This document shows positions 11,454 to 38,718 of a stretch of DNA of 64,000 bases, piece by piece; the stretch's first letter is position 1, and every line of letters begins with the position of its first letter. The position numbers and the translations under genes are program-made. The DNA comes from an uncultured Alphaproteobacteria bacterium (GTDB lineage Bacteria; Pseudomonadota; Alphaproteobacteria; CAAHEQ01; UBA3637), in contig CALXXX010000006.1 of NCBI GenBank assembly GCA_944392795.1, positions 18,485 through 82,484 on the forward strand. The letters are read 5' to 3'. The notes beneath the pieces were generated by a model. That model searched no databases, had not been told where the DNA came from, and saw nothing but the letters and a program-made list of their open reading frames with translations.

Positions 11454-11454
11454 T

Positions 11455-12853: not shown

Positions 12854-13022
12854 TTTTAATCTCCATTTGTAAAAAAAACTAAATGCTGATTATACGCAAT
12901 CAAAAAAGAAAGTCAAGGTTTCTCATTGTTTTGTTTTATGACGTACTTATTAAGTTTTTTTAATTCAATTTATTGTTTTTTTTTAACAGTCGTTTGTTTC
13001 GAAAACTGGTTTAGTATAAAGT

Positions 13023-13052
13023 TTGACTTTTCCTAGAGTAATATGATATAAT
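13023..13052 (+). promoter_or_regulatory. Sigma70-like promoter (TTGACT, 18 nt spacer, TATAAT) for the 13101 gene
   Basis: -35 at 13023-13028 and -10 at 13047-13052. Two tandem 11-bp repeats (agtaatataat at 13065-13086) follow, before the RBS aagggag. Confidence 0.5.
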
Positions 13053-13100
13053 ACTAATGTAAATAGTAATATAATAGTAATATAAAAGACTAAGGGAGAA

Positions 13101-13826: not shown

Positions 13827-13835
13827 GAGGCAATC

Positions 13836-14633
13836 ATGAACTTGAAAAAAAGTTTAGAACACGGAGTTCTTTTAGGTGCGACATTGTTAGCAACCAATGT
13901 CGCAGAGATGCAAAAATCAGAAATGGATAGTCCTAAAAAAGTTCAGCAGGAACAGGTTCATCATTCTCAATTAAAACTAATACAGGAAAATATAGATTCG
14001 TCTTGTAAGGCATATTATCATAATGGTCAACTGAGAGCTGAATTTCCAGCTTGTCCAGATGGAGTTGTCCCTGATAACGTTTCCTATGATGTTTTTGATG
14101 AAAGTGGCAGAAAAATTCAAACTAGGACTCAGCTTAGGAAAGAAATATTCAAAAGTGAGACAATCCGAGTTGATGATTTGGCTTTCAAATTAGAGGAAGC
14201 GAAAAGGCTTCCAGAGGCAGAACGAGACGAATTTATTTTAAATTTGCTTCAGAATTACACTCCCAAAGAAACAACTCAATCTATCCATATACTGAACCAG
14301 TGGAGAGTGTCTTTATATGACAAAGATCAAAAGCCTGCTGGAAGCTATACTCTAGAAGATACCGATTTTATTTGCCGCGATAATGATGAAGGTTCTTCTG
14401 GCTGGAAAACAGGTTATTTACGTAGCTATTCTCTTCCTGATGCTAATGGTGAAATGAAAACTTATGAAGTTAAAGGAAATTTTGCGTTAAAACGGCATTT
14501 ATCTATTGCTCAATTAAAATTTATTGATACCAATTTAAAACAGAAAGGTAAACGGCTCGATGTCGATAAATTTGATAATGCTGATTCGTCCCAGCTTTCT
14601 ATATTAGCTCTTCGAAAAGGAAGAGATTTATAA
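13836..14633 (+). CDS. Hypothetical secreted protein (265 aa)
   Basis: N-terminal signal-like segment LEHGVLLGATLLATNVAEMQ. Four Cys. No known motif. Confidence 0.55.
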   Translation: MNLKKSLEHGVLLGATLLATNVAEMQKSEMDSPKKVQQEQVHHSQLKLIQENIDSSCKAYYHNGQLRAEFPACPDGVVPDNVSYDVFDESGRKIQTRTQLRKEIFKSETIRVDDLAFKLEEAKRLPEAERDEFILNLLQNYTPKETTQSIHILNQWRVSLYDKDQKPAGSYTLEDTDFICRDNDEGSSGWKTGYLRSYSLPDANGEMKTYEVKGNFALKRHLSIAQLKFIDTNLKQKGKRLDVDKFDNADSSQLSILALRKGRDL

Positions 14634-14662
14634 AAAAAAGCCGCTTTTGTAAGCGGCTTTTG
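14634..14662. terminator. Bidirectional rho-independent terminator
   Basis: AAAAAAAG-CCGCTT-ttgt-AAGCGG-CTTTTG, lying between the convergent 13836 gene and rpsD. Confidence 0.7.
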
Positions 14663-14679
14663 ATTCATTTGTAACTTTA

Positions 14680-15294
14680 TTATCTGGAGTAGAATTCGAC
14701 GACCAGATTTGGTTCCATTTGGCAAGCATATGGAATATCGGCCAAGTTTGGAACGCGAACAAAAGTACCGGACATATTTTTTTCATCAACTGTAATGTAA
14801 TCTGGAACAGAGCGTTCAGCAGAGGCCATGGCTTCGATTACCAGAGCCATTTCTTTTGCTTTTCCATTAACTTCAATGACATCTCCTTCTTTTACAAGAT
14901 AAGAAGGAATATTGACTTTTTTACCGTTGACTAAAATATGACCATGATTTACGAACTGACGTGCAGCGAAAACAGTCGGAACAAACTTCATCCGATATAC
15001 AACTGCATCCAAGCGGCTTTCCAAAATACCCACTAAGTTTTCGGAAGTATCACCTTTACGACGAATAGCTTCAGCATAATACTTACGTAATTGTTTTTCA
15101 GAAACATTGCCGTAATAACCTTTTAAGCGTTGTTTAGCACGCAACTGTGTGCCATAGTCGGTTGGTTTGCCATGATGTTGACCATGTTGACCGGGACCAT
15201 ATTCACGTTTGTTAAAAGGAGATTTTGCACGACCCCACAAGGATGTTCCTAAGCGGCGTTCAATTTTATACTTTGCATTAATGCGTTTTGACAT
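14680..15294 (-). CDS. rpsD: 30S ribosomal protein S4
   Basis: [38 protein letters not shown]. The gene is monocistronic. Confidence 0.95.
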
Positions 15295-16494: not shown

Positions 16495-16571
16495 CGGGGC
16501 GTAGCTCAGCCTGGTAGAGTACTTGTATGGGGTGCAAGGGGTCGTGGGTTCAAGTCCCGCCGCCCCGACCA
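16495..16571 (+). tRNA. tRNA-Pro (anticodon GGG)
   Basis: Manual cloverleaf: acceptor stem CGGGGCG/CGCCCCG with C1:G72 (typical of tRNA-Pro); D-arm GCTC..GAGT; anticodon stem CTTGT/GCAAG; loop ATGGGGT (U33, G34G35G36, G37); T-arm GTGGG-TTCAAGT-CCCGC; discriminator A; encoded CCA. Confidence 0.9.
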
Positions 16572-17865: not shown

Positions 17866-18399
17866 ATGTTGAAATTGTTTTTAGCTGAAGAGATTAATCT
17901 GCAAAAAATAAAAAAAGGATTACAAGAAATCAAGGATCATCCGTCTCCTTATGATATTTATCAAGTCAGGAAAGCAATTACTTTTATGGAAAAGGATTTT
18001 AAGGATTATTTAATTTATTTAAAAGAATGTTGTTCAGATAATCAACCAGAGGGTAGAGTTCCATCGACGGTTTTATTTTTATTCAATGATGATGTATTTG
18101 TCGGCGTTTATAATGTGCGGCATGAGTTGAATGAGGAGTTAAGGAAAAGCGGAGGGCATATTGCTTATGAAATTGTGCCATCTTATCGTCAAAAAGGTTA
18201 TGTGAAAGAAGGGCTTAAATTGATTTTGAAATGGTGTTCTGAGCAACTTAATTTACAAGAAGTTCTTCTTTCTTGCATTGCAGAGAATAAACCTTCGTAT
18301 CGGGCGATGATATCTGTTATGAAAGAAAAAGGGGGTTATGAAGATACACCGATAAAAATTGATAATCATTTAGAGTATAGGGTATGGATTAAAACTTAA
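17866..18399 (+). CDS. GNAT-family N-acetyltransferase
   Basis: GNAT core VGVYNVRHE...IAYEIVPSYRQKGYVKEGLKLIL. It lies immediately downstream of the S66 peptidase. Confidence 0.6.
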   Translation: MLKLFLAEEINLQKIKKGLQEIKDHPSPYDIYQVRKAITFMEKDFKDYLIYLKECCSDNQPEGRVPSTVLFLFNDDVFVGVYNVRHELNEELRKSGGHIAYEIVPSYRQKGYVKEGLKLILKWCSEQLNLQEVLLSCIAENKPSYRAMISVMKEKGGYEDTPIKIDNHLEYRVWIKT

Positions 18400-18502
18400 A
18401 ATGTGAAGTCAATTTCTTGGAATAAATGATGGAAAATAATTTAAAAATCTTGACAAAAATATCATTTTAGCATAATATCATTTTCGTTTAAAAGAGTGGA
18501 AA

Positions 18503-25302: not shown

Positions 25303-25782
25303 CTATTTAGCATGACAATGACAACCACTTGCTTTTTCCAAGTATTTTTGATGATATTCTTCTGCTGGGTAAAAAAGATCTAATTTTTCTACACTTGTTA
25401 CAATAGGACGCTTAAAAGAATCTTCTTTAGAGAGTTCTTGAATCTTTTTTAAAGCAATTTGTTTTTCTTCTTCCGTACGATAAAAGATTGTCGAACGATA
25501 TTGAGTGCCATAGTCGGCTCCTTGACGGTTAAGAGAAGTTGGATCGTGAATTTTAAAAAAAATGTCAAGCAACTCATTAAATGAAATTTGTCTTGTATCA
25601 TAGATAATTTCTACAGCTTCAGCATGACCTGTTAAGCCTGAACAAACTTGTTCATATGTTGGATGTGCTAAGTTTCCTCCAGTATAACCGACTTGTGTTG
25701 AGATCACTCCAGGGATTTTATCGAATTCAGCTTGAACTTTCCAAAAACAACCCGCAGCAATAATAAGTGTTGATAAAATCAT
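25303..25782 (-). CDS. msrA: Peptide-methionine (S)-S-oxide reductase MsrA
   Basis: GCFW active-site motif close to the N-terminus. The start MILS is preceded by the RBS gggaggg. The longer listed ORF is an unsupported extension. Confidence 0.85.
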   Translation of the reverse strand: MILSTLIIAAGCFWKVQAEFDKIPGVISTQVGYTGGNLAHPTYEQVCSGLTGHAEAVEIIYDTRQISFNELLDIFFKIHDPTSLNRQGADYGTQYRSTIFYRTEEEKQIALKKIQELSKEDSFKRPIVTSVEKLDLFYPAEEYHQKYLEKASGCHCHAK

Positions 25783-25952
25783 TTTTCCCTCCCTTATAAA
25801 AGAAATAGGATATTTGTTAGAAAATGCTACTATTAAAACAAAAATAGGAAAATAATCCTTGACTTTTTTTCTGAAGCATGCTATACCCATTTTGTTTCTA
25901 GGGTAGACCTGTGTCTTGTGACACGGGTCTTTTTTTATGAAAAGGAGGAAAA

Positions 25953-27152
25953 ATGACCCAAGAAGGAACTCAAGTAACGACACCTCAAATACAATATGTT
26001 GGAGATGGTGTTCAGACAAATTTTAGCTTTTCCTTTCAAATCTTTGAAGAAAGTAATTTGAAAGTTTATTTAGGGAGTGTTTTACAACAAAAAGGCTATA
26101 CAGTTCAGAAGGAAGAAGAAAGTTTAGGGGGAACAGTTATTTTTAATGAAGCTCCGGTATCTGGTGAGCTTATTACTTTAGTACGAGAGCTTGATTTAGA
26201 GCGGACAACAGATTTCGCTTCCGGAGGCGTTTTACGAGCTGCTGATTTAAACTATGAGTTTGATTATCAAATGGGATGTTTGCAACAATTATCTTCTGGA
26301 TTGAGCCGTTCTTTATTGTTGCCTGTTTTTGAAAATAAAGAGGGGATTGATTTTAGCTTACCAGCACCTGAGGCTAATAAAGCTCTTGTCTGGAATGCAC
26401 AAGGTAATTCGTTGATGAATAGTCAAGTTGAAATAGGGAATTTAGATGCTTCTCTTACTCAGGCAGTATCAACAGTTTCTGATTTGGCTGAAGAGGTCAG
26501 TCAAATGAAAGAAAATGCTCAAGAAGCTGCAACGACAGCTACGACGCAAGCAGCAATAGCGACACAGAAAGCACAAGAAGTTCAGCAGAACTTCTCTAAT
26601 TTATATCCTTTTCATGTCAATTCGAACAGTTGTGATTTAAATAGCTTAACAGCCTCAGGAATTTATGAAGTGATAGCTTCGGCGCATTATCCTTTAGATA
26701 CAGGATATTATCATGTTGAGGTATATGTTCCGTCACAAGGTAATATAGTTCAGACAGCTTATGCAGTTGGTGCAAGTATGGGAGGGTATCCAGCTACTTA
26801 TCGTCGTCGTTTTATAAACAGTGCTTGGGAAGATTGGCTTCAGATTTCTAATGAAGGAATGGGGAGTCCTTCAGGGCAAGTGATTAATATTTCTGTAGAA
26901 AGTGCCGGAGAACAACATGTTTTAAATTCTCCTGCAAATGGATTTTATTGCTTGATAGGTTTATCAACTGCAGCTTCTCAGGAAGTTTATTTGAGTAATT
27001 CAGTAAATGGTATGGCTGTTTTAAGCTCTGCAACAGCTCCATCTAAGAATCTCGCAATTTTCTTGCCGGTCTCAGCTAATCAAAATGTGCGCTATTTATA
27101 TACAACAGCAGGTACAGTGACATTGAAATTTATTTATGCGAAAGGAGTTTAA
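25953..27152 (+). CDS. Phage T7 gp17-like tail-fibre protein (N-terminal tail-attachment domain plus a divergent C-terminal domain)
   Basis: N-terminus QYVGDGVQTNFSFSFQIFEESNLKVYL...TDFASGGVLRAADLNYEFDYQ parallels T7 gp17 YQLDGSNRDFNIPFEY...VDFTDGSILRAYDLNVAQIQ. Confidence 0.65.
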   Translation: MTQEGTQVTTPQIQYVGDGVQTNFSFSFQIFEESNLKVYLGSVLQQKGYTVQKEEESLGGTVIFNEAPVSGELITLVRELDLERTTDFASGGVLRAADLNYEFDYQMGCLQQLSSGLSRSLLLPVFENKEGIDFSLPAPEANKALVWNAQGNSLMNSQVEIGNLDASLTQAVSTVSDLAEEVSQMKENAQEAATTATTQAAIATQKAQEVQQNFSNLYPFHVNSNSCDLNSLTASGIYEVIASAHYPLDTGYYHVEVYVPSQGNIVQTAYAVGASMGGYPATYRRRFINSAWEDWLQISNEGMGSPSGQVINISVESAGEQHVLNSPANGFYCLIGLSTAASQEVYLSNSVNGMAVLSSATAPSKNLAIFLPVSANQNVRYLYTTAGTVTLKFIYAKGV

Positions 27153-27153
27153 G

Positions 27154-27441
27154 ATGTATTATATTATTGATGAAAAAGGACAAATAAAAATGTCTGCAGA
27201 TTTTCGTTTTTCAGAAAACTGTATAGAAACAGAAAAAAATATTGTGACAGGTTTTGATGGAAAACTTTATTTTGAAGGAGAAGAACCTGTAAAACCAGAG
27301 CCAACTTATATTGAGCTTCGGCAGGCGGCGTATCCTCCTATTTCTGATCAGTTAGATATGTTATATTGGGATGCAGTAAACGGGACGACGATATGGAAAG
27401 ATACAATTTCAGAGATTAAAACACAATATCCTAAAAGTTGA
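27154..27441 (+). CDS. Small hypothetical protein (95 aa), possible tail-fibre partner or chaperone
   Basis: The start MYYIIDEKG is preceded by the RBS aaaggag. It is followed by a terminator at 27446-27476. Confidence 0.45.
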   Translation: MYYIIDEKGQIKMSADFRFSENCIETEKNIVTGFDGKLYFEGEEPVKPEPTYIELRQAAYPPISDQLDMLYWDAVNGTTIWKDTISEIKTQYPKS

Positions 27442-27445
27442 AGAA

Positions 27446-27476
27446 AAGGGCTTCTTAACTGAAGCCCTTCTTTTTT
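27446..27476 (+). terminator. Rho-independent terminator
   Basis: AAGGGCTTC-ttaact-GAAGCCCTT-CTTTTTT. Confidence 0.8.
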
Positions 27477-27550
27477 AGTAAAAATAAAAGTCGTTGACAT
27501 CCAAGAGCAATCTTTTTAAAATACCGCACATTAAAAGAAAAAGGTAAAAA

Positions 27551-28300
27551 ATGAAAAGAAATGTCGGTATTGTGGGATGTGGTGTTATTGGAGGTGCTTT
27601 AAAGGAATGGCTTGAAAACCATACAGAGCATACGGTACTTGTATCAGATCCACCTAAAGGTTATAATGATGATTTATCAACATGTGATGTTATTTTTATG
27701 AGCCTACATGTTCCAACAGAGAAAGATGGAACACAAGATTTATCTCTTTATAAAAGTCTTTTAAGAACATTACCTGATCATACACCTATTTTTATTCGGA
27801 CGAGTATTTTGCCAGGAACTTCTGCTCAGTTAGCACAAGAGACAGGAAAAGAAGTATACTTTATGCCAGAGTTTTTAACTGAGCGAACTTCTGTCTCAGA
27901 TTTTGAACATCAAGATATTATTTTTACGGCACATGTTGATTTACTAAAGGAAATTTTTCCTGGCAAAAAATATCAAGTTATGTCTTCGATTGAAGCTGAA
28001 ATTGCAAAATATGTTCACAATGTTTTTGGTGCATTAAAAGTCACTTATTTTAATGCTGTATATGACTATTGTCAAAAAATGGGGGCAGATTATAAGACTG
28101 TTCAAAAAGGCGTTTTAATGTCGGGTTATATCAATCCAACGCATACATTTGTTCCTGGACCTGATGGCAAATTTGGATACGGAGGAAAATGTTTTCCAAA
28201 AGATGTCAATGCTTTTGCAAAAGCGACAGAACATGAAAACTTAGGAAAAATATTGGCGGTTATTGCACCGTTAAATGATAAATTCAGAAATAATAAATAA
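27551..28300 (+). CDS. UDP-glucose/GDP-mannose 6-dehydrogenase-family protein, C-terminally truncated (249 aa; the UDP-binding domain is absent)
   Basis: Rossmann GIVGCGVIGG. PEFLTERTSVSDF matches Ugd PEFLREGKALYD. The catalytic-Cys region GYGGKCFPKDVNAF matches GYGGYCLPKDT. The ORF ends ~140 aa early compared with Ugd. Confidence 0.55.
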   Translation: MKRNVGIVGCGVIGGALKEWLENHTEHTVLVSDPPKGYNDDLSTCDVIFMSLHVPTEKDGTQDLSLYKSLLRTLPDHTPIFIRTSILPGTSAQLAQETGKEVYFMPEFLTERTSVSDFEHQDIIFTAHVDLLKEIFPGKKYQVMSSIEAEIAKYVHNVFGALKVTYFNAVYDYCQKMGADYKTVQKGVLMSGYINPTHTFVPGPDGKFGYGGKCFPKDVNAFAKATEHENLGKILAVIAPLNDKFRNNK

Positions 28301-28318
28301 AAAATTAAAGGAATATGT

Positions 28319-30481
28319 ATGACTGAAGGCTTGATTAAAGTAAGTGTTATTCTTCCTATTTATAATGTAGAAAAATATATTTCACAAAGCCTAGATAGTT
28401 TACTTAATCAGACTTTAAAAGAAATTGCAATTATTTGTGTCGATGATGGTTCTACTGATAATACTCCTAAAATTTTAGAGGACTATCGTCAAAAAGATAG
28501 TCGAATTCATGTTATCAGGCAAAAAAATCAATATGCTGGGGTGGCTCGTAATAATGGGTTTGAGTATCAATTGCGGTTGCCAGGCGGTGGTGCTCCGTAT
28601 GTTATTTTCTTAGATCCAGATGACATATATGCTAAAGATATGTTGGAAAAACTGTATAATCGAGCTATTGAAACAAAAGCTGATGTTGTTTTGTCTCATT
28701 TAAATTATATTATTGATAATCGTGTAAGCTTTCGACCTTCTAGTTTTTATGAAAGTTATTTGATACACAAATACATAAAAGATGTTTTTTCTTGGAAAGA
28801 AATAGGCGGTGATGTTTTCTTTTTCCATGTTTATCCTTTTAATAAATTATGTTCTGTAGATTTTCTTCAGAAAAACCACTTTCGCTTTCAAGGTGTTAGA
28901 AATACAAATGATGCTGTTTTCGGATTAGATATTATTAGCTTCGCAGAGAGAATTGCACATATTGCGGATGCGCCGTATTTTTATCGTTTTAATCGAGATA
29001 ATAATACCCGAACGACGAAAGGAAAAAATTTAGATAGTGTATTATTGGCTTATGATGAGGCTTTAAGACATATTCAAAAGCATCCTGACTATGAAAAGAT
29101 AAAACCACAATTTTTATTGGCTCTTGTTCAATTTTATGCTTTTCATATTTATACATATTGTGTTAAGGAAGATAAGAAAAAAGAGTGTTTTTCTCTTATC
29201 TCAAAACAAAAAGATTTTTTTCATAAAGCTCAGGCTTTTATTAGAAAAACTTATTTAGAGACGCCAGATGTGTTAATCATGCAAAGGTATGCATTCCCAA
29301 AACAATTACCTAGAACAGAAGATTTAGGTTTGCATATAGAGCGTTTTTTAAAACAAAAAAAATTTTCTATATACAAAAAAATTAAACATTTTATATGGCA
29401 TCAAAAAGCAAAAAATGACATAATAAAAATGTATTTATTGGGCTTTCTTATTTTTAAAAAAGAAAAAAAACAAAACAAAACCATATGTAAGGTTTTAGGA
29501 ATTTCATTATATAAAGAAAAGAAAAAAAATAATATTATAATCGGGAAATTATGTGGAATTAAGATTTTTAAATCCAAGGCACTTCCATATAAAAGAATCT
29601 TGTCTCAGATGATTCATAAGGCTGATATACATAGAGGAGAAGATGCATATATTCTTTTTGTGAATAGTGGAGAAACATATTTAGTTGCTCAAGTTTTAAA
29701 GGATTTCTACCAGAAGGAAAGGCCTAATAGACCTAAAATTATTGTTCCTCGATTATATCAAAAAATAATTATATCTATGTATGCTCCTTGGGCAGATGTT
29801 GTTGTTTTTCCTGAAAAAAATGAAAATTATCGTCATGTTTGTAGATATATAGAGAAAAAATCTTATATAAAAGGAGTTCATTTTAAAAATATTATACCAA
29901 TAGATATGTGGTATGGTGAGGAAGTTAAAAAAGTTCATTATTTTTCTTTAATTATGAAGATGATGGGACTTCCGATTGAAAAAACATGTTTATTTCAAAA
30001 GCCTCAATTTATTTCATTCGGTAAAAAATGGGGTGTACAACAACGTTTTTTACAGATGAATTTAAATAGAGATCGCTTTATATTTCTTTCTCCAGAGGCT
30101 ACAACAATTTCTCCAATACCTAATCATTTATGGCAAGATTTTATAGATAAAGTGAGAGAAAAAGGATATGATGTATTTTTAAACACAACTTGTTCACCTC
30201 AGTTAGAGGGATGTAAAAGTTGTTTTTTAGATTTTGAAGAAGCGTATGAGCTAGCTTCTTATGCTAAAGCTATTATTGGTTTGAGGAGTGGTTTTTTAGA
30301 AACATTAACAACAATAAATACACCATTCCATGTAATTTATAATAGGGATATACAAGGTAATAACAATCGTCTTCTTCGTAATACTTTATTAAAATTACCA
30401 GGTGTTCATCCGGAACAAATACATGAATATGATTATTTGAAAAATCCAAGATGTTTGGAAGATATCTTGAAATTGTTATAA
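28319..30481 (+). CDS. Multidomain glycosyltransferase: N-terminal GT2, central Lys-rich ~19-aa repeats, C-terminal GT9 (heptosyltransferase)-like domain
   Basis: GT2 motif ILPIYNVEKYISQSLDSLLNQT...CVDDGSTDNT. Repeats MYLLGFLIFKKEKKQNKTI / CKVLGISLYKEKKKNNIII / GKLCGIKIFKSK. C-terminus FIFLSPEATT...IIGLRSGFLE is GT9-like. Confidence 0.6.
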   Translation: MTEGLIKVSVILPIYNVEKYISQSLDSLLNQTLKEIAIICVDDGSTDNTPKILEDYRQKDSRIHVIRQKNQYAGVARNNGFEYQLRLPGGGAPYVIFLDPDDIYAKDMLEKLYNRAIETKADVVLSHLNYIIDNRVSFRPSSFYESYLIHKYIKDVFSWKEIGGDVFFFHVYPFNKLCSVDFLQKNHFRFQGVRNTNDAVFGLDIISFAERIAHIADAPYFYRFNRDNNTRTTKGKNLDSVLLAYDEALRHIQKHPDYEKIKPQFLLALVQFYAFHIYTYCVKEDKKKECFSLISKQKDFFHKAQAFIRKTYLETPDVLIMQRYAFPKQLPRTEDLGLHIERFLKQKKFSIYKKIKHFIWHQKAKNDIIKMYLLGFLIFKKEKKQNKTICKVLGISLYKEKKKNNIIIGKLCGIKIFKSKALPYKRILSQMIHKADIHRGEDAYILFVNSGETYLVAQVLKDFYQKERPNRPKIIVPRLYQKIIISMYAPWADVVVFPEKNENYRHVCRYIEKKSYIKGVHFKNIIPIDMWYGEEVKKVHYFSLIMKMMGLPIEKTCLFQKPQFISFGKKWGVQQRFLQMNLNRDRFIFLSPEATTISPIPNHLWQDFIDKVREKGYDVFLNTTCSPQLEGCKSCFLDFEEAYELASYAKAIIGLRSGFLETLTTINTPFHVIYNRDIQGNNNRLLRNTLLKLPGVHPEQIHEYDYLKNPRCLEDILKLL

Positions 30482-30485
30482 ATTT

Positions 30486-32639
30486 TTAATTTATTTTTTC
30501 AAGAATATCGTCTATGACAGAATCATAATCTTCCGGTCGAATTCGAAAGTATTCATAGCAATTGTTTGTTTGTGTAATGAGATTAATGCTATAAACTTCC
30601 TGAACCCATTTATTAACATCAACTAAGAAAGAAAAGTGAGCCGGATGGCGATCTAAATAAAAAATAAATTTTTTAGCTTTTGTTTCTTGCATACATTCTG
30701 AAAACCCACTTCGTCCTGCGATCATGTAGCCGCACAGCTCAATAAAATGAAATGTTGCTGAAAAGTTTAAGAAAATTTTGTGAACATGAGTATTCAGAAC
30801 AGTATCGTAGGCCGTTCCTTTCGTATTAATAACGATATCAAAATGACGTTTTCTGAAGGAGTTGATTAACTTCTCCATCAATTCTATTGGAAAGTTTCCA
30901 AAAAAGTCTGTTTCTGGGGATAAAAATATTACTTTATTTTGGGTTAGTTTTAAATTTTTGAATGCTGTTTCAGCTTCTTTAATAGCTTGTTGAGAAATAT
31001 GGGGAAGTTCATGAGGCGTGTTTTGGTCTAACAATAAGAAGTCTTTAATAACATGATTGATTGGATAAAAATGCCATTGTTTTTTATCATCTGTAAATGT
31101 TTGAATACCATGTACTTGATCTTTCCATCCATGCTTAGTTTCACGAATCGTGATGTAATTTAATAATTTACCTTTTGCATTATAGAAAAAACCGGAAGAA
31201 GGAGTAAAATGTTTGATATGAATAAAATGAGTATCGATATAGTCTTTTGAAAAACCAAACATTTCAAGTATTTGTTTAGTATAAGGGAAAAAACTACCAA
31301 TAAAAACTTCTTGTTTTAGTTTTTTTTGGAGCTCTCTTAATAGACTAAAAATATAATAGCTCTCACCAGAATGATAATTCAGGTAAAGGAATGGATGCCC
31401 ATTGGCTTGTTTACGTAAAAAGGACATCCAATTGTTAAAAGCTTCTGTTCTAAAATTCTTATTATGATAAACTTTGATGCCCAAAATAGAGATAATTAAT
31501 TTTTTGTTTTTGACTTTTCGGCTAAAGAAAGGAATACCCAAAACAGAAATATTCATTTTATAAGAATTTTTGTGATTTACATAGCGTATAATTCCACCCA
31601 ATAATTTATATTTTTCATTTTTTTTCCTAAAAATAGGAAATCCAAAAATTTCATACTTTAAATTATCCTTTTTTGTTTCCTTTTTGAAAAAAGGAATAAA
31701 GTTAAATAAGAAAATGCGCTTTTTATTATTTTTTTCTTTAAAACGCAATAGAGGAATGATGCCAAATAAATAAATTTTTTTCTTTTTGGGTAAAGCTTGA
31801 TGAAGTAAAATCTCTTCCTGAATATCTTGAATATTAAAAAGTGTTTTAAACGAAAATACAGAATACGTTTTTTTGTCGGTTGAATAATAAACATAAAGTT
31901 TTCTATTAGGTGCAAAGGCAATTAAATCGCATAAACCACTTCGTAAGGCATGTACTTCGTGGCAGTATGTTGCAAGCATGATTACTTCTTCTAAATTTAA
32001 AGGGATATTAGGTACTCCTTTAATGAGAGATTCTTCCTTCGTTATATTAGATACGACGATATATCCTTTATTAAGAAAATTATGAGCTAATTTTTCCCAA
32101 AAACGAGGGGATAAAGGCGGAACGGAATTTGCCTCTGGTAATAATAAAACTATTTTTTCTAACGGGCCATATTGAGCTAATTTTTCTTTTAATCTTTGAG
32201 AGAGAACGGGATATTTAAATGGTTTTGAAAATGAAGCAGTCGTAGGTAATTTTAGAAAATCCTTATACCAGCTTAAGAATGTCAAATGTTCGCGATGTTC
32301 TTTCATCTCTTGAACGAACTTTTTAGCCCAAGGGTGAAAATCTGGATGAGCAACAAATATTTTTCCTAATTCTGGTTTCGGCGTTTTTAAAGCAAAAGAA
32401 AAAAGAGAGGCTTTGTCAAAAGAGGCGATAACATAATCTTTAGTGTCATATAGCTGCGCAACAATCATATGAGAGGGTTTAATGATGAAATGAACTTTCC
32501 CCTTTAATTGCTTTTCTATTTCTTTTTTTAAGCCGATCAGGCAAAGAGAATCTCCCAATCCGCATGGAGATAGGAAATAATAAACATCTGATCTGCCTTT
32601 AAAAGAGCTTAAGTCATTGATGACAGATGAAGAATTCAT
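30486..32639 (-). CDS. Multidomain glycosyltransferase with two GT9-like modules flanking an array of ~6 Lys-rich 19-20-aa repeats
   Basis: N-module FLSPCGLGDSLCLIG (GT9 GxGD motif). C-module VIFLSPETDF...MIAGRSGFSE. The central repeats follow the pattern h-h-G-I-P-h-F-x-K-K-x-x-K. Confidence 0.55.
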   Translation of the reverse strand: MNSSSVINDLSSFKGRSDVYYFLSPCGLGDSLCLIGLKKEIEKQLKGKVHFIIKPSHMIVAQLYDTKDYVIASFDKASLFSFALKTPKPELGKIFVAHPDFHPWAKKFVQEMKEHREHLTFLSWYKDFLKLPTTASFSKPFKYPVLSQRLKEKLAQYGPLEKIVLLLPEANSVPPLSPRFWEKLAHNFLNKGYIVVSNITKEESLIKGVPNIPLNLEEVIMLATYCHEVHALRSGLCDLIAFAPNRKLYVYYSTDKKTYSVFSFKTLFNIQDIQEEILLHQALPKKKKIYLFGIIPLLRFKEKNNKKRIFLFNFIPFFKKETKKDNLKYEIFGFPIFRKKNEKYKLLGGIIRYVNHKNSYKMNISVLGIPFFSRKVKNKKLIISILGIKVYHNKNFRTEAFNNWMSFLRKQANGHPFLYLNYHSGESYYIFSLLRELQKKLKQEVFIGSFFPYTKQILEMFGFSKDYIDTHFIHIKHFTPSSGFFYNAKGKLLNYITIRETKHGWKDQVHGIQTFTDDKKQWHFYPINHVIKDFLLLDQNTPHELPHISQQAIKEAETAFKNLKLTQNKVIFLSPETDFFGNFPIELMEKLINSFRKRHFDIVINTKGTAYDTVLNTHVHKIFLNFSATFHFIELCGYMIAGRSGFSECMQETKAKKFIFYLDRHPAHFSFLVDVNKWVQEVYSINLITQTNNCYEYFRIRPEDYDSVIDDILEKIN

Positions 32640-32648
32640 AAAAAGCCT

Positions 32649-33878
32649 CTATAGATTGATATTTTGAACAAATTTAATCGCCTCATACATTGAAACATCA
32701 GCATTTTGGTATTGCCATTGTCCCCATCTTCCAACGCCAAACAAGTGTTGAGGATGATAATACTCCAGAACATTCTTAATTGCTTGAGCATGTCCGATAA
32801 CAGGAATTGGATAAGCAGCTTGTGTTTCAAAATGAGCTAATGCTTTTGTTCCCATAACAGGATCATCTCCTTGGAAACGTTTAATATTTGTTTCAATATA
32901 AATACCATTTTTCTTGCTGTCGAAAGCAAAGTTAGAAATATAAAATTCCCGATGATAACGACGATTGATATCCGGAACATAGCGCCAATGCCAATTGACA
33001 TCGTAGTCTTTTTCATATAAAGAAACGACGATACGGTTGTATTGCATTTTTGCAAAATCATCTTTTAGAACAGAAGGTTCACCTAAAGCTTTGAACAAAT
33101 CAGGCCAAGGAGCTGTGTTTATTACATTTTTTGCTTGATATTGTTCATTGATGAGCCATGTTCCATCTGCTTGATATTGCATTTTCGTGACAGGCGTATT
33201 GAGAACGACATTAGAAGCTTCATCTTTGTAGATTGCATCAAAAATAGCTTGGAAGCCGCCTTTTTTAGGGTAGTAGAAGCCTATATGAGCAGGGAATTTC
33301 GTGACGTCTTGCTTACGATCCAAACTGTATTTTAAAACTTCTTCCACATTAACACGTGGAATTTTGTATAACCAGTCGACATCCATTTCGGCAGGTGTGA
33401 CTCCCCAAAGCTTAGTATTGTAAGGGATCATATAAGTGTCACAGATTTTATCACCTAGTTTCCAGCGAATCCATTCTTCATAATTTTTTGGTTCAGGTTT
33501 TCCTAAAGATTCTCCATTACGAATGACAGAGATTAAATAGGAAATCTGTTCATCTTGAGGTAATTGCCACAAGTTAGATTCAATAGGATAGTCAATGGTT
33601 GTTTCGCCAATTAACTGCTTTGAAACTCGTGGAATAAAATTAAATTCGCTTTCGGGAATATGGCTGAAAATATAGTCATAAACTTCTTGATGCTTTGTTC
33701 CAAAAAAGTGTCCACCGCCGATATCTAAAATATGACCATCAATTATTTTGGTCGTACATAAACCACCAGCTTCTTTTCCAGCTTCCAGAACCACAACGTT
33801 TTTAATGCCTTTTTCTTTTAATTTTTTGCATAAAGTAACACCAGTGACTCCTGCACCAATAATCAGATAATCATACAT
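32649..33878 (-). CDS. glf: UDP-galactopyranose mutase
   Basis: FAD-binding MYDYLIIGAGVTG at the N-terminus and Glf-family motifs throughout. The true start at 33878 has the RBS aaggaaaa. Confidence 0.85.
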   Translation of the reverse strand: MYDYLIIGAGVTGVTLCKKLKEKGIKNVVVLEAGKEAGGLCTTKIIDGHILDIGGGHFFGTKHQEVYDYIFSHIPESEFNFIPRVSKQLIGETTIDYPIESNLWQLPQDEQISYLISVIRNGESLGKPEPKNYEEWIRWKLGDKICDTYMIPYNTKLWGVTPAEMDVDWLYKIPRVNVEEVLKYSLDRKQDVTKFPAHIGFYYPKKGGFQAIFDAIYKDEASNVVLNTPVTKMQYQADGTWLINEQYQAKNVINTAPWPDLFKALGEPSVLKDDFAKMQYNRIVVSLYEKDYDVNWHWRYVPDINRRYHREFYISNFAFDSKKNGIYIETNIKRFQGDDPVMGTKALAHFETQAAYPIPVIGHAQAIKNVLEYYHPQHLFGVGRWGQWQYQNADVSMYEAIKFVQNINL

Positions 33879-33889
33879 TCTCTTTTCCT

Positions 33890-34948
33890 TTATAAAGATT
33901 GATACCAAGTATAGAAAGCTTGAATGCCTTCTTCCAAAGAAATCTTTGGTTCCCACCCCAAAGCTTTAATTCGTGTGGCATCCATCATTTTTCGCGGTGT
34001 CCCATTCGGCTTTGAAGTATCATACTCAATTTTCCCTTGATAATTGGTAATACGTTTTGTTAATTCAAACAAATTCTTCAATTGAATATCATCACCTTTT
34101 GTAATATTAACAAATTCACCAATTTCGTTATAATCTTTGTTATTCATCAAGTAAATACAAGCATCGGCTAAGTCATCTGAACACATCATTTCGCGATAAA
34201 CTGAACCATCTCCCCACATAACCACTTTATCTGAATATACTCCTACTTTTTCTAAAGCTTTTAAAAGATTATTTTGGTCGTTAAAATCAAGATGTTCATC
34301 TAATCCCCAACCTAATTTATAGCGCTTTAAATCTGTTTTAATCGCATCCCAATCATTTTGCATCAATAACTTTGCTAAATGGAAACGACGCATGATAACC
34401 GGTAATAAGTGCCCGGTTTCCATATTAAAGTTATCTCCTTGACCATATTGATTGGTCGGCATGACTGAAATAAAGTTTGTTCCATATTGTTTATTATAAT
34501 ATTGGCAAAGTTTAATAGCCGATATTTTTGCAAGAGCATACGCTTCATTTGTTTTTTCTAGTTCTCCAGTTAACAGAGCTTCTTCCTTCATCGGTTGAGG
34601 CGCCATACGTGGATAGATACAAGAAGAGCCTAAATTTAAGAGTTTTTTGACACCTGTTTTATACGCACTATCAATTACATTACAAGCGATCATCAGATTT
34701 TGATAAATAAACTCAGCAGGGTAAGTTGAATTTGCCATAATTCCCCCCACTTTTGCAGCTGCCAAAAGAACATATTCTGGCTTTTCTTGCTCAAAGAAAG
34801 AAAGTGTCTGAGCCTGATTTGTTAAATCTAATTCAGAAAAAGTTCTTGTAATAATGTTAGTATAACCAGCTTTTTTTAAGCCTCGATGAATGGCAGAACC
34901 AACCAAGCCCATATGTCCTGCTAAATAAATCTTTGCATCTTTTTCCAT
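33890..34948 (-). CDS. fcl: GDP-L-fucose synthase (GDP-4-keto-6-deoxy-D-mannose 3,5-epimerase/4-reductase)
   Basis: KIYLAGHMGLVGSAI...LLAAAKVGGI...YGQGDNF. It contains a ~30-aa insertion relative to the typical ~320-aa Fcl. Confidence 0.85.
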   Translation of the reverse strand: MEKDAKIYLAGHMGLVGSAIHRGLKKAGYTNIITRTFSELDLTNQAQTLSFFEQEKPEYVLLAAAKVGGIMANSTYPAEFIYQNLMIACNVIDSAYKTGVKKLLNLGSSCIYPRMAPQPMKEEALLTGELEKTNEAYALAKISAIKLCQYYNKQYGTNFISVMPTNQYGQGDNFNMETGHLLPVIMRRFHLAKLLMQNDWDAIKTDLKRYKLGWGLDEHLDFNDQNNLLKALEKVGVYSDKVVMWGDGSVYREMMCSDDLADACIYLMNNKDYNEIGEFVNITKGDDIQLKNLFELTKRITNYQGKIEYDTSKPNGTPRKMMDATRIKALGWEPKISLEEGIQAFYTWYQSL

Positions 34949-34953
34949 ATTAT

Positions 34954-36048
34954 TTACACCTCCTGAGGGATTAAAACCTGATATCCATTTCCTGTTAAGA
35001 ATTTTTCACGCATTGCTTCTTTCATATCAGATTCAACCATATCTTTAACCAACTCTTCTAAAGAATGTTCTGCTTTCCAACCCAACTTCTTTTCAGCTTT
35101 ACTAGGGTCTCCTAATAATAAATCGACTTCTGCGGGACGAAAGTATTTTGGATCTACTTCGATAAGGACATTGCCGGTGGCGGCATCAATTCCTTTTTCG
35201 TTTATGCCTTCACCTTCCCATTTTAACTGATATCCTAATTCTTTAAAGACCAAGTTACAAAAATCTCGAATTGTTGTTGTTTTTCCGGTCGCTAAAACAA
35301 AGTCTTCAGCTTTTTCTTGTTGAAGCATTAACCACATGCCTTTTACATAATCTTTTGCATGTCCCCAGTCGCGTTTTGAAGATAAGTTACCTAAGTAGAG
35401 TTTATCTTGCATACCAAGGCGGATTCGAACAGCAGCTCTGGTAATTTTTCGTGTAACAAATGTTTCTCCTCGACGAGGGCTTTCATGGTTGAATAGAATG
35501 CCATTACAAGCAAACATGCCATAGCTTTCACGGTAGTTAACCGTAATCCAGTAAGCATATAATTTAGCACAACCATAGGGGGAACGAGGATAAAAAGGCG
35601 TCGTTTCCTTTTGAGGTGTTTCTTGTACGAGTCCGTAGAGTTCAGAAGTTGAGGCTTGATAAAATCTTGTTTTCTTTTCTAAACCAAGGATACGAATAGC
35701 CTCTAAGAAACGTAATGTTCCGATACCATCAGCATTTGCAGTATATTCTGGAACATCAAAAGAGACTTTAACATGTGATTGAGCGGCTAAATTATAAATC
35801 TCATCAGGCTGAATTTCTTGTAAGAGACGAATGATATTGCTTGTGTCTGTTAAATCTGCATAATGTAAATAAAAATTACGATTCGCACTATGAGTATCTT
35901 GATATAAATGATCGATGCGAGCTGAGTTAAAGGAGGAAGCACGTCGTTTCATTCCATGCACTTCATATCCTTTTTCCAATAATAACTCTGCTAAATATGA
36001 ACCATCTTGTCCGGTAACACCGGTAATTAAAGCCACTTTTTTTGTCAT
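34954..36048 (-). CDS. gmd: GDP-mannose 4,6-dehydratase
   Basis: [29 protein letters not shown] and the SDR catalytic region. Confidence 0.9.
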
Positions 36049-36056
36049 TATCTATC

Positions 36057-36488
36057 CTATTTTTTCCAATTATTTAAAATCCACGAAGAAGAATTCATTT
36101 TATTTTCTCCTCCAACTCCGAAACGTAACTCAACTTGATAGGCTTTACAAGTATCAATTTCTGGAATATTTGTTTGTGTTCTGTCTCCGCCGTTTGCAAA
36201 AACAAGTCGATCATGTGGGTATTTCTGACGAGCCTTACGAATACCATCACTTGCGGAGTTATCAGAATCATCAAAACTAATTACGTCTATAACGCCTTTG
36301 ATATTTTCACAGATTGTTTGGCGTGTCTTTTGAGACATAAAATTTTTCCCTTTCTTCCGACATAACCACTCATCTGAATTTAAAAGTAAAATAACGCCAT
36401 CCGATTCTTTTTGTGAGGCTTTAATCATTTCAATATGACCTTCATGAATAGGATCAAACCCTCCACTGACAATGTAGTAAGTTTTCAT
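36057..36488 (-). CDS. Cytidylyl/adenylyl-transferase-like protein (HldE domain II / heptose-1-phosphate adenylyltransferase-like)
   Basis: Nucleotidyltransferase HxGH motif VSGGFDPIHEGHI, then LLNSDEW...KG and ...FANGGD. Confidence 0.65.
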   Translation of the reverse strand: MKTYYIVSGGFDPIHEGHIEMIKASQKESDGVILLLNSDEWLCRKKGKNFMSQKTRQTICENIKGVIDVISFDDSDNSASDGIRKARQKYPHDRLVFANGGDRTQTNIPEIDTCKAYQVELRFGVGGENKMNSSSWILNNWKK

Positions 36489-36621
36489 TTTTTTTTGTCT
36501 TTCTTTTATGAATAGTTGAAGGAATTATAATAGATAAAAACTGAAAAGCAAGTAGAAAATCTTTTAAGTTCAATATTTTTTTTAATCGTATCCATTTTTG
36601 TTTAAAATGGTATTTTTATAG

Positions 36622-37482
36622 TTATTCTTGAGGTAGATGCCATCCTTCTTTTTTTGTATAAAAAAGAATTTTGTTAGTATGAAGATATTTATACTTATCC
36701 TTTTTGCGCCAAAGATGACGTTGTTTCCAAAGGTGATAAATTGTCTTTAAAGAAATTTTTTCTTTTCCTACAATTTCTTCCATTTCTTTTCGGTATTGAA
36801 AAATATTTTCTGATAATTGGCCAGGTCGGGTGCGGGCAGCGGCTAAAAAAGTGTTAGCTATATAAAGAGGCGTTTGTTGAGCAAAAGACCACCATAGATA
36901 AAAATCTCCGGCCAAATGAAAAGAAGAGAATTTTTTATAATTGAAATTATTCATTAACGAACGTCTCCAAAAAGTCGTTTCTTGTTGAATAAAAGGGAGT
37001 TGATTTCCATAATAACCTTTTAAAATATCTTGTTGAAAATATTCAAAAGGAAGACGATTAAAGATGATATTTCCTTTTTCGTCTGTCGTACATTGACGGC
37101 TGCATAACCAAGAAATCTGAGGATATTTGTCGAAAATGGAACAGGCAAACTCAAAGGCATTAGGTAGATAATAATCATCAGCGTTAATATAGGCCATAAT
37201 ATCCCCTGTTGCTAGTTTGAAGCCTTTTGCAATTCCGTCATACATACCTTGATCTTTTTCTGATATTACTTTCATTTCAATCCGAGGCTTTAGAAGAAGA
37301 TCTTGTTTTTGTTTTAAATTATCTTGAAAATTTGAAATGATCTGTAGGCTCTTATCAGAGGATAAGCCATCAATTATAATATACTCCAGATCAAAGTTTC
37401 CTTTTTGTGAAACGACACTGTTTAAGGTTTCATAAATATATTTATCGCAGTTGAGACAAGGTGTTATAATTGATATTTTCAT
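36622..37482 (-). CDS. Glycosyltransferase family 2
   Basis: ISIITPCLN...IIIDGLSSD...NADDY (DxD). Confidence 0.75.
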   Translation of the reverse strand: MKISIITPCLNCDKYIYETLNSVVSQKGNFDLEYIIIDGLSSDKSLQIISNFQDNLKQKQDLLLKPRIEMKVISEKDQGMYDGIAKGFKLATGDIMAYINADDYYLPNAFEFACSIFDKYPQISWLCSRQCTTDEKGNIIFNRLPFEYFQQDILKGYYGNQLPFIQQETTFWRRSLMNNFNYKKFSSFHLAGDFYLWWSFAQQTPLYIANTFLAAARTRPGQLSENIFQYRKEMEEIVGKEKISLKTIYHLWKQRHLWRKKDKYKYLHTNKILFYTKKEGWHLPQE

Positions 37483-37518
37483 CTTATAGTGGTTTCTTTT
37501 TAATTTATTTTTTTACTT

Positions 37519-38718
37519 TTAGTTTAATATTGTTTTTAGTAAAGTAAAGCAGTTTTTTGAAAAACTTTCTCGAGAGTAATGTTGTGTAAAATAATCTTGT
37601 AAAAAGCGGATGTCATTTTCAACTTCTGTCATATCTTTTTGATAAAAAGTATGTAGAGCTTCTTCAATTTCAGATATAGAACATGTTTCAAGATAAATAC
37701 CTTTTCCTTTAGGTAAATCAATTCCGGCATCTCGGCTAATAATAGGATATAAACCTGCGTTTAAAGCCGTAATTGCTGCGGTTGATGTTGCTTCTGAGCC
37801 AGAAGCATTTACGAAGGCAACGCATTTTGATAAAATTTGCTTGAACAAATCTGAATTAGGTTGAACTAAACCATAACAATGGATATTTTTTGTTTCAAAT
37901 AACTCTTTTTGATAGACTTCTACAAAATCTTTTTCTGACTGGATTTTTCCGGCAATGTGCAAATGCCATTCAGGGTGCTTTGAAAAAACTTCTAAAAGGC
38001 GATCTAAGCCTTTTAAAATAGCTCCTGCACCGCCGATCCATAAGATACCCCTGTCGCTAGGAGGAGGAATAAAATCTTTTTGTTTTGCTGTATTGCTTAA
38101 ATCGGAACCGGTTAAATTTAATAAGTGAATTTTTGAACGTAAATTTTTAGGGTATGTATTAAGGGTGTGCTTATTTCCAAGCAAAATAGCGATATCAGCT
38201 TTTTCTAAAGAAGAGCGCAATTCCTGAGCATCATCTAAAAAACGCTTAGGTTGACAACAAGCTTTTCTACGTTGATTAAGAGATTGGCATCTTTGTTGTT
38301 CTTTTTGATTCTGATAGAAAGGATCACTTCCTGTTAGATATTGTACTTTTAAGCAGTTCGGAGGTAGTTTCCAAAAATTAAAATGAGTTCCTAAATCAAT
38401 AATGACACGATAATCTTTATGTGGCTTAAAAAGAAGATTTTTGTAAAAAATAACATCAACATTGTAGCCTAGTTTAAGTAGAGATTGCACTAGTTCTTTA
38501 TTTTCCCATTGATTAGAGTGATATTGAAAAAGGCTTTTTTTCTTTGGTTCTATGGCCCAGTCTACTAGGTAAGAGACAAGAGCCCATGGAGCATCAGATT
38601 TTGTTATAAAAGAAGCTTCCTCTTTTATAAGAAGAGATGTTAAAAAAAGTTGTGCTTTATGGCGCATTTCTCTGTTTGGAATGAAGCAAGTTATGGCCTT
38701 TATTAATTTTTTTTTCAT
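37519..38718 (-). CDS. Glycosyltransferase family 4 (GT-B, GT1-clan)
   Basis: The C-terminal half (ILWIGGAG...FVNASGSEATSTAAITALNAGLYPI) is GT4-like. The start was reassigned to MKKKL, which overlaps the upstream stop (TAATG). Confidence 0.65.
   Translation of the reverse strand: MKKKLIKAITCFIPNREMRHKAQLFLTSLLIKEEASFITKSDAPWALVSYLVDWAIEPKKKSLFQYHSNQWENKELVQSLLKLGYNVDVIFYKNLLFKPHKDYRVIIDLGTHFNFWKLPPNCLKVQYLTGSDPFYQNQKEQQRCQSLNQRRKACCQPKRFLDDAQELRSSLEKADIAILLGNKHTLNTYPKNLRSKIHLLNLTGSDLSNTAKQKDFIPPPSDRGILWIGGAGAILKGLDRLLEVFSKHPEWHLHIAGKIQSEKDFVEVYQKELFETKNIHCYGLVQPNSDLFKQILSKCVAFVNASGSEATSTAAITALNAGLYPIISRDAGIDLPKGKGIYLETCSISEIEEALHTFYQKDMTEVENDIRFLQDYFTQHYSRESFSKNCFTLLKTILN

Follow-up and report, generated by a model that had tools for sequence, protein, structure and literature searches.

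The gene transfer agent (GTA) of Rhodobacter capsulatus, RcGTA, has its receptor-binding genes (ghsA/ghsB = rcc01079/01080, fibre rcc00171) away from the main structural cluster, and its head-spike genes adjoin the capsule genes responsible for their receptor and share the regulation of these genes (PMC10218006). A remote receptor-binding protein (RBP) locus beside receptor-synthesis genes is thus already known. Here we describe a two-gene tail-fibre module in a 64-kb stretch of DNA from an uncultured alphaproteobacterium (contig CALXXX010000006.1; the whole analysed stretch is called the window). With a probability of roughly 0.7, the fibre gene and its small partner constitute a receptor-binding module supplied in trans to a domesticated particle of T7/HTVC010P-like type, with a head and a short tail, whose main cluster lacks a fibre gene and lies elsewhere in the chromosome. 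The module probably sets which cells the particle binds. The receptor-binding genes would stand apart from the main cluster here as in RcGTA. However, RcGTA is HK97-capsid siphovirus-like and belongs to a different alphaproteobacterial clade, whereas the particle considered here is of the T7/HTVC010P podovirus type (PF12236 portal, T7 scaffold, adaptor, nozzle) with a gp17-type fibre anchor. RcGTA is under CtrA/GafA control whereas the present system apparently depends on a CI-like S24 repressor and leader terminators, and no sequence relationship between the two was found. In Caulobacter, anti-termination is known to control a GTA (PMC11150451). BaGTA was considered as a possible relative on account of its 'tail fibre' genes of 300-320 residues.

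A podovirus-like GTA-like element, FpGTA, is found in the gut bacterium Faecalibacterium prausnitzii, with a head operon and a second operon carrying tail fibre/RBP and lysis genes; the 2026 paper calls it the first element of this kind (PMC12946183). FpGTA belongs to another phylum, and its likeness to the clusters treated below is one of gene layout, taken from its description. Because FpGTA was termed the first, the alphaproteobacterial family is apparently undescribed, and the literature searched, with incomplete coverage, contained neither a T7-like GTA-like element in Alphaproteobacteria nor fibre genes in their glycan loci. The apparent novelties are a particle of podovirus type, a gp17-type fibre paired with a DUF4376-type chaperone, a promoter/terminator leader common to both loci, and a cassette in which fibre tip and glycosyltransferases are coupled.

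Among cultured phages, Methylophilales phage MEP301 and Yersinia phages YeP4-6 are nearest to both the fibre anchor (31-36% identity) and the nozzle protein of the related clusters (about 30% over 88-99% of the length), and HTVC010P-type pelagiphages are also among the best nozzle matches. These matches likely mark the viral ancestry. The phages have complete genomes of about 35 kb, whereas the clusters described here are chromosomal, about 11 kb long and devoid of replication or integration genes. With T7 gp17 and the KP32-type tailspikes (Dpo31/Dpo36, PDB 28lx/8ck1) the window fibre shares a homologous N-terminal domain and the layout of anchor, helical shaft and distal tip. Compared with gp17 (553 residues), it is shorter (399 residues), its tip is unrelated, its predicted chaperone is a separate DUF4376-type protein, and no adaptor or nozzle genes adjoin it. 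Proteins of the DUF4376 family, namely gp27 of Alteromonas phage V22 and gp9 of A5, are experimentally characterised fibre chaperones encoded directly downstream of the fibre (PMC7289586, PMC10579305).

The fibre gene and its partner

A reading made earlier from the letters of the window alone (the sequence-only reading) had proposed a T7 gp17-like fibre with an N-terminal attachment domain, and comparison with phage fibre profiles gave matches across this domain. PHROG 1640 (tail protein) matched residues 9-126 at E=8.7e-20, together with about 20 more tail-fibre PHROGs, and among PDB profiles the N-terminus of the Klebsiella-phage tailspike Dpo31/Dpo36, a solved structure, matched at E=1.4e-7. 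The Pfam family PF03906 (Phage_T7_tail) matched residues 12-111 at E=5e-5 with 23.5 bits, the cut-off being 25.2 bits, and the fibre homologues P0003-P0005 have this domain. In a BLASTP comparison with T7 gp17, ERTTDFASGGVLRAADLN aligned with DRLVDFTDGSILRAYDLN, both at residues 83-100, and the second of the gp17 motif parallels drawn in the sequence-only reading is therefore in register. Judging by these matches, the N-terminal 110-125 residues of the fibre are a phage tail-fibre attachment domain homologous to that of gp17.

For the remainder of the protein the earlier description held in part. The composition and the helix prediction agree with a Thr/Ala/Gln-rich, coiled-coil-like linker, but only in a low-confidence model, in which residues 161-217 form a helix; weak matches to Alanine_zipper and ZapB were also obtained. 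The AlphaFold2 prediction of the fibre, made from a 7-sequence alignment, had a mean pLDDT (predicted local distance difference test) of 38 and was unusable as a model. The supposed C-terminal domain of about 200 residues is indeed distinct, but it consists of two pieces, an insert of about 85 residues and a tip of about 100 residues. Residues 205-399, used in an exhaustive search, retrieved 136 representatives. Of 119 related proteins, 110 have the tip at their very C-terminus, with the consensus MPS.kYidLtLGaSG.tYTAPAnGyf...lPVkKG...YT..G...FrFIYAeGe, and the proteins that bear it carry PF03906, BppL_N (a lactococcal-phage RBP motif) or pectate-lyase/endosialidase domains. The sole match of the tip among PDB profiles was a weak jelly-roll (E=0.01). 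Its C-terminal position and its occurrence on varied phage RBPs mark it as a putative mobile phage receptor-binding tip.

The ATG of the partner gene, at 27154, lies 1 nt past the TAA of the fibre gene, and a terminator-like hairpin closes the two-gene operon, as had been noted from the sequence. The partner of 95 residues had no Pfam match at E<=1 and no match among PDB profiles. It matched PHROGs 9114 (E=3.9e-12), 1787 and 2687 by its C-terminal motif YP..DQLDM.YWD..NGT..W...I..IK..YPK. A profile built from 49 partners retrieved, at E=6e-26, the proteins of 172 residues from a second set of loci (group B, described below; L058), which Pfam assigns to DUF4376 (PF14301) at E=2.4e-28. In the alignment the partner is a short form without about 60 central residues of the DUF4376 domain. 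Because of this profile-level kinship to the experimentally characterised DUF4376 chaperones, the partner may be read as the chaperone of the fibre. Like V22 gp27 and A5 gp9 it is a small gene directly 3' of the fibre; in contrast to them it has the short form and stays below every Pfam threshold, and it is thus called a candidate chaperone.

A predicted promoter and leader shared with fibre-less T7-like clusters

The predicted promoter of the module has a conserved core, AGGAAAAnnnTCC, fused to the -35 box. In the group-A loci, a set of about 50 species that includes the window, the consensus is tAGGAAAAttTTCC fused to TTGACt/a, with TGcTATAaT after about 17 nt of spacer, and it stands 5' of the fibre in about 40 loci. 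The motif occurs once in 64 kb, with 0.01 matches expected by chance. The element at 25846-25887 is predicted to act as a promoter. It is followed by a terminator-like hairpin, the T-run of which ends 16 nt 5' of the fibre ATG. Leaders of group A carry one or two such hairpins with T-runs, and a hairpin with a T-run lies 5' of the fibre start in 46 of 48 loci regardless of the direction of the upstream gene. In many loci there is an extra upstream hairpin, GGCACnGG-UGUAU-CCnGUGcc; its loop, UGUAU, is conserved, and 4 of its 8 pairs show compensatory changes. No Rfam family came near its gathering score in the leader region. A terminator between promoter and ribosome-binding site would imply that read-through is the means of control.

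The same type of promoter was found 5' of portal or capsid genes in the T7-like clusters L068, L209, L233 and L241. When the motif was used as a DNA probe in IMG/VR, it retrieved clusters without a fibre gene (L254 and L255, GC content 0.34; L250, 0.42), and L266, L257 and L232/L233 are fibre-less as well. Protein searches with the nozzle did not lead to such low-GC clusters: the best 80 metagenome loci all had a GC content of at least 0.42, and among the best 120 nozzle proteins only that of L089 was of low-GC composition.

The cluster L254 belongs to a 105-kb chromosomal contig (L259, cluster at 4025-15235). To its left lie host genes (T2SS-E, T2SS-F, FtsJ, RsmB), followed by a minus-strand S24 repressor gene, two genes encoding 126 and 134 residues and the promoter, after which a portal operon encodes a protein of 61 residues, portal, Bbp19, scaffold, capsid, adaptor and nozzle. 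To the right are genes for 103 and 96 residues, terminase, endolysin and small open reading frames (ORFs), and then host genes again (a helix-turn-helix protein and Lnt). No integrase, excisionase or replication genes were found in this element of about 11 kb or its flanks, and its GC content is host-like (0.344 versus 0.368). In the homologous cluster L233, PHROG and Pfam profiles identified a CI/LexA-like repressor, tail tubular protein A and a SleB-type endolysin. Neither of the two early proteins has a recognisable fold, and the one of 126 residues had no match among PDB profiles. A related element, GGAATATAATCC, sits in the spacer of the early promoter beside the repressor gene, between its -35 and -10 boxes (L259, 4760-4775), and for this reason the shared motif may be the operator of the repressor instead of an activator site.

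Fibre module and fibre-less cluster were found together in relatives. Two human-gut contigs of the L035 lineage, L332 (64 kb; cluster at 1-10636) and L333 (118 kb), each carry both loci in the order fibre-less cluster, S24 repressor, lnt, rpmJ, lon, rpsU, partner (102 residues) and fibre (341 residues), beside DegT and GT2 genes. Against the fibre profile the fibre of these contigs scored E=5e-75, and against the partner profile their partner scored E=2e-45. The promoter-leaders of the fibre and of the portal operon are near-identical there: A(A/T)AGGAAAATAATCCTTGACATT-N12-TGTGATATAGTG, then a hairpin and a T-run. The same near-identity was seen in a metagenome-assembled genome (MAG) with the locus-tag prefix E7013, common to both loci, by which cluster and orphan fibre were assigned to one MAG; exact-sequence look-up placed its nozzle MBE6449231.1 (E7013_00830) and terminase E7013_00845 on the 105-kb contig, and the orphan fibre of L051 (MAG SIG52, SUUS01000009.1) is MBE6449697.1 (E7013_03290). 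The shared promoter-leader lies at 25846-25937 in the window, at L039:9840-9960 and at L332:8430-8545 and 18340-18460 (minus strand). An S24 repressor gene lies within 10 kb of the fibre also in L016 (about 9 kb) and L035. In L089, a low-GC Rhodospirillales MAG, the nozzle and terminase genes of a T7-like cluster enclose the genes for a fibre of 387 residues and its partner, an arrangement which appears to show that the module originated in such a cluster; there and in many other clusters, fibre homologues directly follow adaptor and nozzle.

Compact chromosomal clusters of the T7/HTVC010P-like type, of about 11-16 kb, with host-like GC content and devoid of integrase or replication genes, were seen in L259, L332, L254, L250, L266, L233 and loci L065-L331, and only some contain a fibre gene. 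They look like an apparently undescribed GTA-like or defective-prophage family. Membership in the RcGTA-like Rhodogtaviriformidae was considered and rejected, as the cluster proteins match T7-type families (PF12236, PF05396, PF19821, nozzle, tail tubular protein A). The sequence-only reading had named a GTA or a tailocin-like particle encoded elsewhere as the possible user of the fibre: a GTA-like particle is supported by the relatives, whereas a tailocin is not, since the clusters that go with the fibre include genes for portal, scaffold, capsid and terminase, and the particle would be GTA-like or phage-like.

Two traits of GTAs were observed in the relatives. The particle genes are dispersed, being found apart on one contig or on separate contigs of one MAG, and the structural clusters are chromosomal, flanked by housekeeping genes and host-like in GC content, and lack replication, integration and excision genes (L259, L332/L333). 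The resident element might nevertheless be something other than a GTA, such as a defective or helper-dependent phage, a satellite or a killing particle, for which the remote fibre would serve infection, spread or antagonism. The cluster does have a CI/LexA-type S24 repressor and an endolysin, as inducible prophages do, and its nozzle family is huge (3213 homologues at E<=1e-10, mostly about 50% identical, in Magnetospirillum, Acetobacteraceae and marine and gut Alphaproteobacteria), with many copies classed by IMG/VR as proviruses. Many high-GC relatives moreover retain the fibre inside the cluster like an ordinary phage gene. We consider this explanation unlikely, although it deserves attention: the lack of integrase, excisionase and replication genes in the element and its flanks, the housekeeping genes at its boundaries and a GC content equal to that of the host are at odds with it, and a tip inherited together with the glycan genes of its own strain (see below) suits self-recognition more than attack. 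Because an essential virion gene lies far from a cluster without replication or integration functions, the element would be unable to propagate as a phage, and such a block to self-transmission is a hallmark of domestication. Such a separation is the logic by which gene transfer agents are defined, and the particle may package host DNA.

Distribution and genomic contexts

The distribution of the module was scanned in one genome per species, and 184 relatives were found. The closest comes from GCA_949282845.1, the MAG of an uncultured alphaproteobacterium, and shows 94% identity with collinearity over 21 kb. In line with the alphaproteobacterial host implied by the sequence-only reading, the best matches came nearly all from MAGs of low-GC gut and rumen Alphaproteobacteria, the remoter ones from Magnetospirillum, Rhodospirillales and Acetobacteraceae. 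Four contigs with an alphaproteobacterial-type fibre or T7-like cluster (L021, L026, L076, L086) are labelled Christensenella, Lactobacillales, Limiplasma and Bacteroidota and are probably mis-binned.

Clustering of the ORFs over all loci yielded three contexts, groups A, B and C. In group A the fibre has 311-400 residues (470-630 in a few loci) and is followed in 43 loci by a partner of about 100 residues. Downstream, usually on the opposite strand, lie genes for glycosyltransferases, epimerases, DegT, Glf and nucleotidyl-transferases, while the upstream genes vary. An annotated glycan gene lies within 6 kb of the module in at least 37 of 51 group-A loci; this is a minimum, as many flanks are short or lack annotation. 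Two modules each were found in three MAGs, and annotated glycan genes lie within 6 kb in five of the six loci concerned.

Group B consists of seven loci (L044, L055, L056, L058, L060, L061, L063; for example L058:9971-18137), with a longer fibre, of 513-585 residues in most loci, and a full-length DUF4376 protein in several. The fibre is followed by genes for a PMT_2/ArnT-like glycosyltransferase, GT2, YdjC, GtrA and, in most loci, an autotransporter, and the fibre-type promoter is present 5' of the module in four of the seven loci (L044, L055, L056, L060). This arrangement (fibre, 172 residues, then 490/327/275/139/630 residues) was examined as a candidate prophage and rejected, since Pfam identified an EptA/TerC/ROK flank, DUF4376 and glycan genes. 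Group B can be described as a gtrABC-like surface-glycan-modification module linked to the fibre, with no phage genes nearby. In group C, the high-GC relatives, the fibre accompanies a T7-like structural cluster with portal (PF12236, E=6.5e-123), T7-type scaffold, capsid, nozzle, pectate-lyase fibre and terminase.

These contexts bear on the earlier proposal that the module is the relic of a decayed prophage, which would then lie beside the polysaccharide locus by chance. Phage seroconversion genes are often linked to fibres, which the gtrA/gtrB-like context of group B recalls, and no other phage gene was found among the window ORFs examined. A relic is nevertheless hardly credible, since both ORFs are intact and under purifying selection (dN/dS, the ratio of nonsynonymous to synonymous substitution rates, of 0.13), and since the two genes, their dedicated promoter and both terminators have been kept in about 50 species within differing chromosomal neighbourhoods.

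Selection and exchange of the fibre-glycan cassette

Compared with the 94%-identical orthologue in locus L001, the fibre gene has a dN/dS of 0.126 as a whole, 0.061 in the anchor and 0.188 in the distal part, values within the range of the neighbouring housekeeping genes; the partner gene has 0 substitutions in 288 nt. Synonymous divergence (dS) between the window (25953-36048) and L001 is uneven, with 0.27 in the fibre, 0.76-1.34 in the Glf-like and epimerase genes and 0.01-0.1 in the genes of the left flank. This mosaic indicates a probable recombination hot spot, with repeated recombination between close strains in the fibre-glycan region.

The constraint also speaks to the idea that the fibre is a cellular protein which no longer enters a virion, for instance a glycan-binding or -processing factor or an adhesin with a phage fold. 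Such a role would agree with the constant linkage to glycan genes, and the insert of 85 residues could hold a catalytic domain. We regard it as very improbable, because the N-terminus has no signal peptide in its sequence, the strongest constraint falls on the tail-attachment domain, the tip family otherwise occurs on phage RBPs and the regulation is common to virion genes.

A comparison with L010, from another species with about 75-79% nucleotide identity and the same 5' synteny (coaE to msrB, msrA), delimited the exchanged segment by blastn. Homology to the window stops at 26398, in fibre residue 148, and restarts at 32662; the gap is filled in L010 by a different 5.2-kb set of fibre tip, partner (92 residues), epimerase and GT2 genes. 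A second breakpoint was seen in L006, the first 367 nt of which are 97% identical to the window lineage, whereas from about fibre residue 100 through partner and glycosyltransferases it is 99.4-99.9% identical to L021, the anchor domain of which is unrelated in its nucleotides. L006 and L021 are short metagenome contigs for which chimeric assembly is possible; this is excluded for the pair of window and L010. With breakpoints inside the fibre gene in both comparisons, the distal part of the fibre, the candidate chaperone and the glycosyltransferase set thus move as one unit, of which the anchor is the conserved left flank.

The sequence-only reading had suggested looking across strains for co-variation between distal domain and polysaccharide locus, and such co-variation is visible in these two comparisons. 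The global comparison of tip identity with shared downstream genes over 666 locus pairs (one pair with tips at least 50% identical, mean shared gene fraction 0.01) is uninformative because tip and gene set are unique in almost every species.

A host-encoded decoy or hijacker would not need a resident particle at all: the fibre could load onto incoming podoviruses and spoil or retarget their progeny, or the locus could be a reservoir of tips for phages. The anchor does resemble those of free-living podoviruses (MEP301, YeP4-6 and T7-like cyanophages, 31-39% identity), the locus has the character of a recombination hot spot (dS 0.2-1.3 across fibre and glycan genes versus 0.01-0.1 in the flanks), and a T7-like cluster was not seen in the 64 kb of this genome that were searched. 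On the other hand, promoter and leader are identical in type to those of the structural operon of a resident cluster and occur on the same contigs, a pure poison needs neither a chaperone nor a conserved, selected tip (dN/dS 0.19), and fibre-less resident clusters create a need which a remote fibre fills. A decoy function therefore appears quite improbable.

Genes around the module

The neighbours reported in the sequence-only reading, msrAB and glycosyltransferase genes, were confirmed by Pfam annotation through the collinear locus L001, which was used for the window ORFs at 15952-37141. The module is flanked by msrB, msrA, a UDP-glucose-dehydrogenase-like gene, glycosyltransferase and epimerase genes (Table 1). 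The polysaccharide locus comprises the UDP-glucose-dehydrogenase-like gene, GT2 genes, genes for a Glf-like flavoprotein, two epimerase/dehydratases and a cytidylyltransferase, and GT1 and GT2 genes. The statement that nothing else in the window is of phage type held among the ORFs examined: a Pfam scan of 30 further window ORFs found only housekeeping genes (LptC/A/B, ArgRS, ProRS, TatC, YidC, DnaX and MnmA among others), with several ORFs lacking a Pfam match and a few outside the L001-covered stretch unscanned, and tblastn with 15 proteins of a related T7-like cluster found nothing in the 64-kb window. The GC content shows no anomaly.

A single tRNA-Pro gene (GGG; 16495-16571) lies 9 kb 5' of the fibre, with no integrase and no repeat suggestive of an att site seen nearby. 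The msrA ORF as called in a related MAG (195 residues, start 25890, minus strand; 25776-25890) overlaps the fibre promoter. The conserved MsrA motif GCFW comes after a later Met (MILSTLIIAAGCFW, start near 25776). The true msrA start is thus probably a downstream one, and the intergenic region would measure about 176 nt instead of 62 nt. The GT2-containing ORF of 720 residues (28319-30481) corresponds to two genes (261 residues, GT2, and 454 residues) in the 93%-identical MAG (L001:12367-14531); either it is a fusion in the window, or the L001 MAG has a frameshift or stop.

Table 1. Position of the fibre module and associated features in the window
Feature	Position	Strand	Basis or detail
Specialised promoter (predicted)	25846-25887	+	upstream element AGGAAAATAATCC 25846-25858, -35 TTGACT 25859-25864, 17-nt spacer, extended -10 TGcTATACC 25879-25887
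Terminator-like leader hairpin, 11 bp (6 GC pairs), with T7 run	25905-25937	+	folding free energy (dG) -16.8 kcal/mol
Tail-fibre / receptor-binding protein gene, 399 aa	25953-27152	+	ORF calling and profile matches
N-terminal tail-attachment (anchor) domain, T7 gp17 / PF03906 type, ~aa 1-150	25953-26402	+	conserved part
Ala/Thr/Gln-rich helical shaft, ~aa 160-217	26430-26603	+	predicted helix, low confidence
Variable distal part: insert domain ~aa 222-300, C-terminal tip ~aa 301-399	26616-27149	+	
Partner gene, 95 aa, short DUF4376-related candidate tail-fibre chaperone	27154-27441	+	PHROG 9114, partner profile
Intrinsic-terminator-like hairpin (9 bp, GC-rich) with T-run, end of two-gene operon	27446-27476	+	
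Exchangeable cassette: fibre from ~aa 149, partner, UDP-glucose-dehydrogenase-like gene, 720-aa GT2-containing protein, 717-aa protein	26399-32661		blastn vs L010
Surface-polysaccharide biosynthesis locus, ~12 kb	27551-39551		Pfam annotation of collinear L001 and window ORFs

Proposed function of the module

In the mechanism that we propose, relief of the S24 repressor would allow one or both of the cluster-encoded early factors (126 and 134 residues) to activate the special promoters or to antiterminate at the leaders, and the structural operon and the remote fibre operon would fire together. The partner chaperone would fold the trimeric fibre from its C-terminal tip, and the conserved anchor would dock at the adaptor-nozzle junction, where gp17 docks in T7. 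The variable tip would then bind the surface polysaccharide made by the neighbouring genes, and tip, chaperone and glycosyltransferases would therefore be inherited and swapped as a lock-and-key cassette. The endolysin would release the particles, which would most likely be GTA-like and aimed at cells with the same glycan.

Several points weigh against assigning the module to a particle of this kind. Neither tblastn nor Pfam scans detected the T7-like cluster in the 64-kb window, and the presumed link for this organism rests on the shared promoter and leader, on the purifying selection acting on the anchor, and on the relatives, three genomes or lineages of which show both loci. The co-membership of both loci in the E7013 MAG could be a binning artefact, a weakness from which the single-contig cases are free. 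No large internal core or ejection proteins (equivalents of T7 gp14-16) were recognised in the clusters, and DNA delivery is therefore conjectural. The binding of the glycan by the tip is deduced from linkage alone, the co-variation statistics being uninformative, and the promoter activity, the antitermination and the SOS control are predictions from the sequence.

A broader claim, which we put forward tentatively and at odds clearly short of even, is that the specificity locus in the window belongs to a very widespread but so far unrecognised podovirus-type GTA family of the Alphaproteobacteria, whose fibre has moved to the glycan locus in gut and rumen members, and which is governed by a shared late promoter and Q-like antitermination under an SOS-type repressor. 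The family of fibre-less T7-like clusters is open to induction, proteomics and sequencing of particle DNA in cultivable relatives such as Magnetospirillum. If the trans-encoded receptor-binding module of a domesticated particle is the right reading, this arrangement would be a second one like that of RcGTA, evolutionarily independent of it, and would point to a general rule in the design of domesticated phage particles. It would also provide a sequence-level handle on the DNA-exchange partners of poorly known gut and rumen bacteria. With glycan cassette and tip swapped together, the surface serotype would define gene-exchange groups. On the broader claim, one cassette swap would change the coat of the cell and the address label of its DNA-delivery particles at once.

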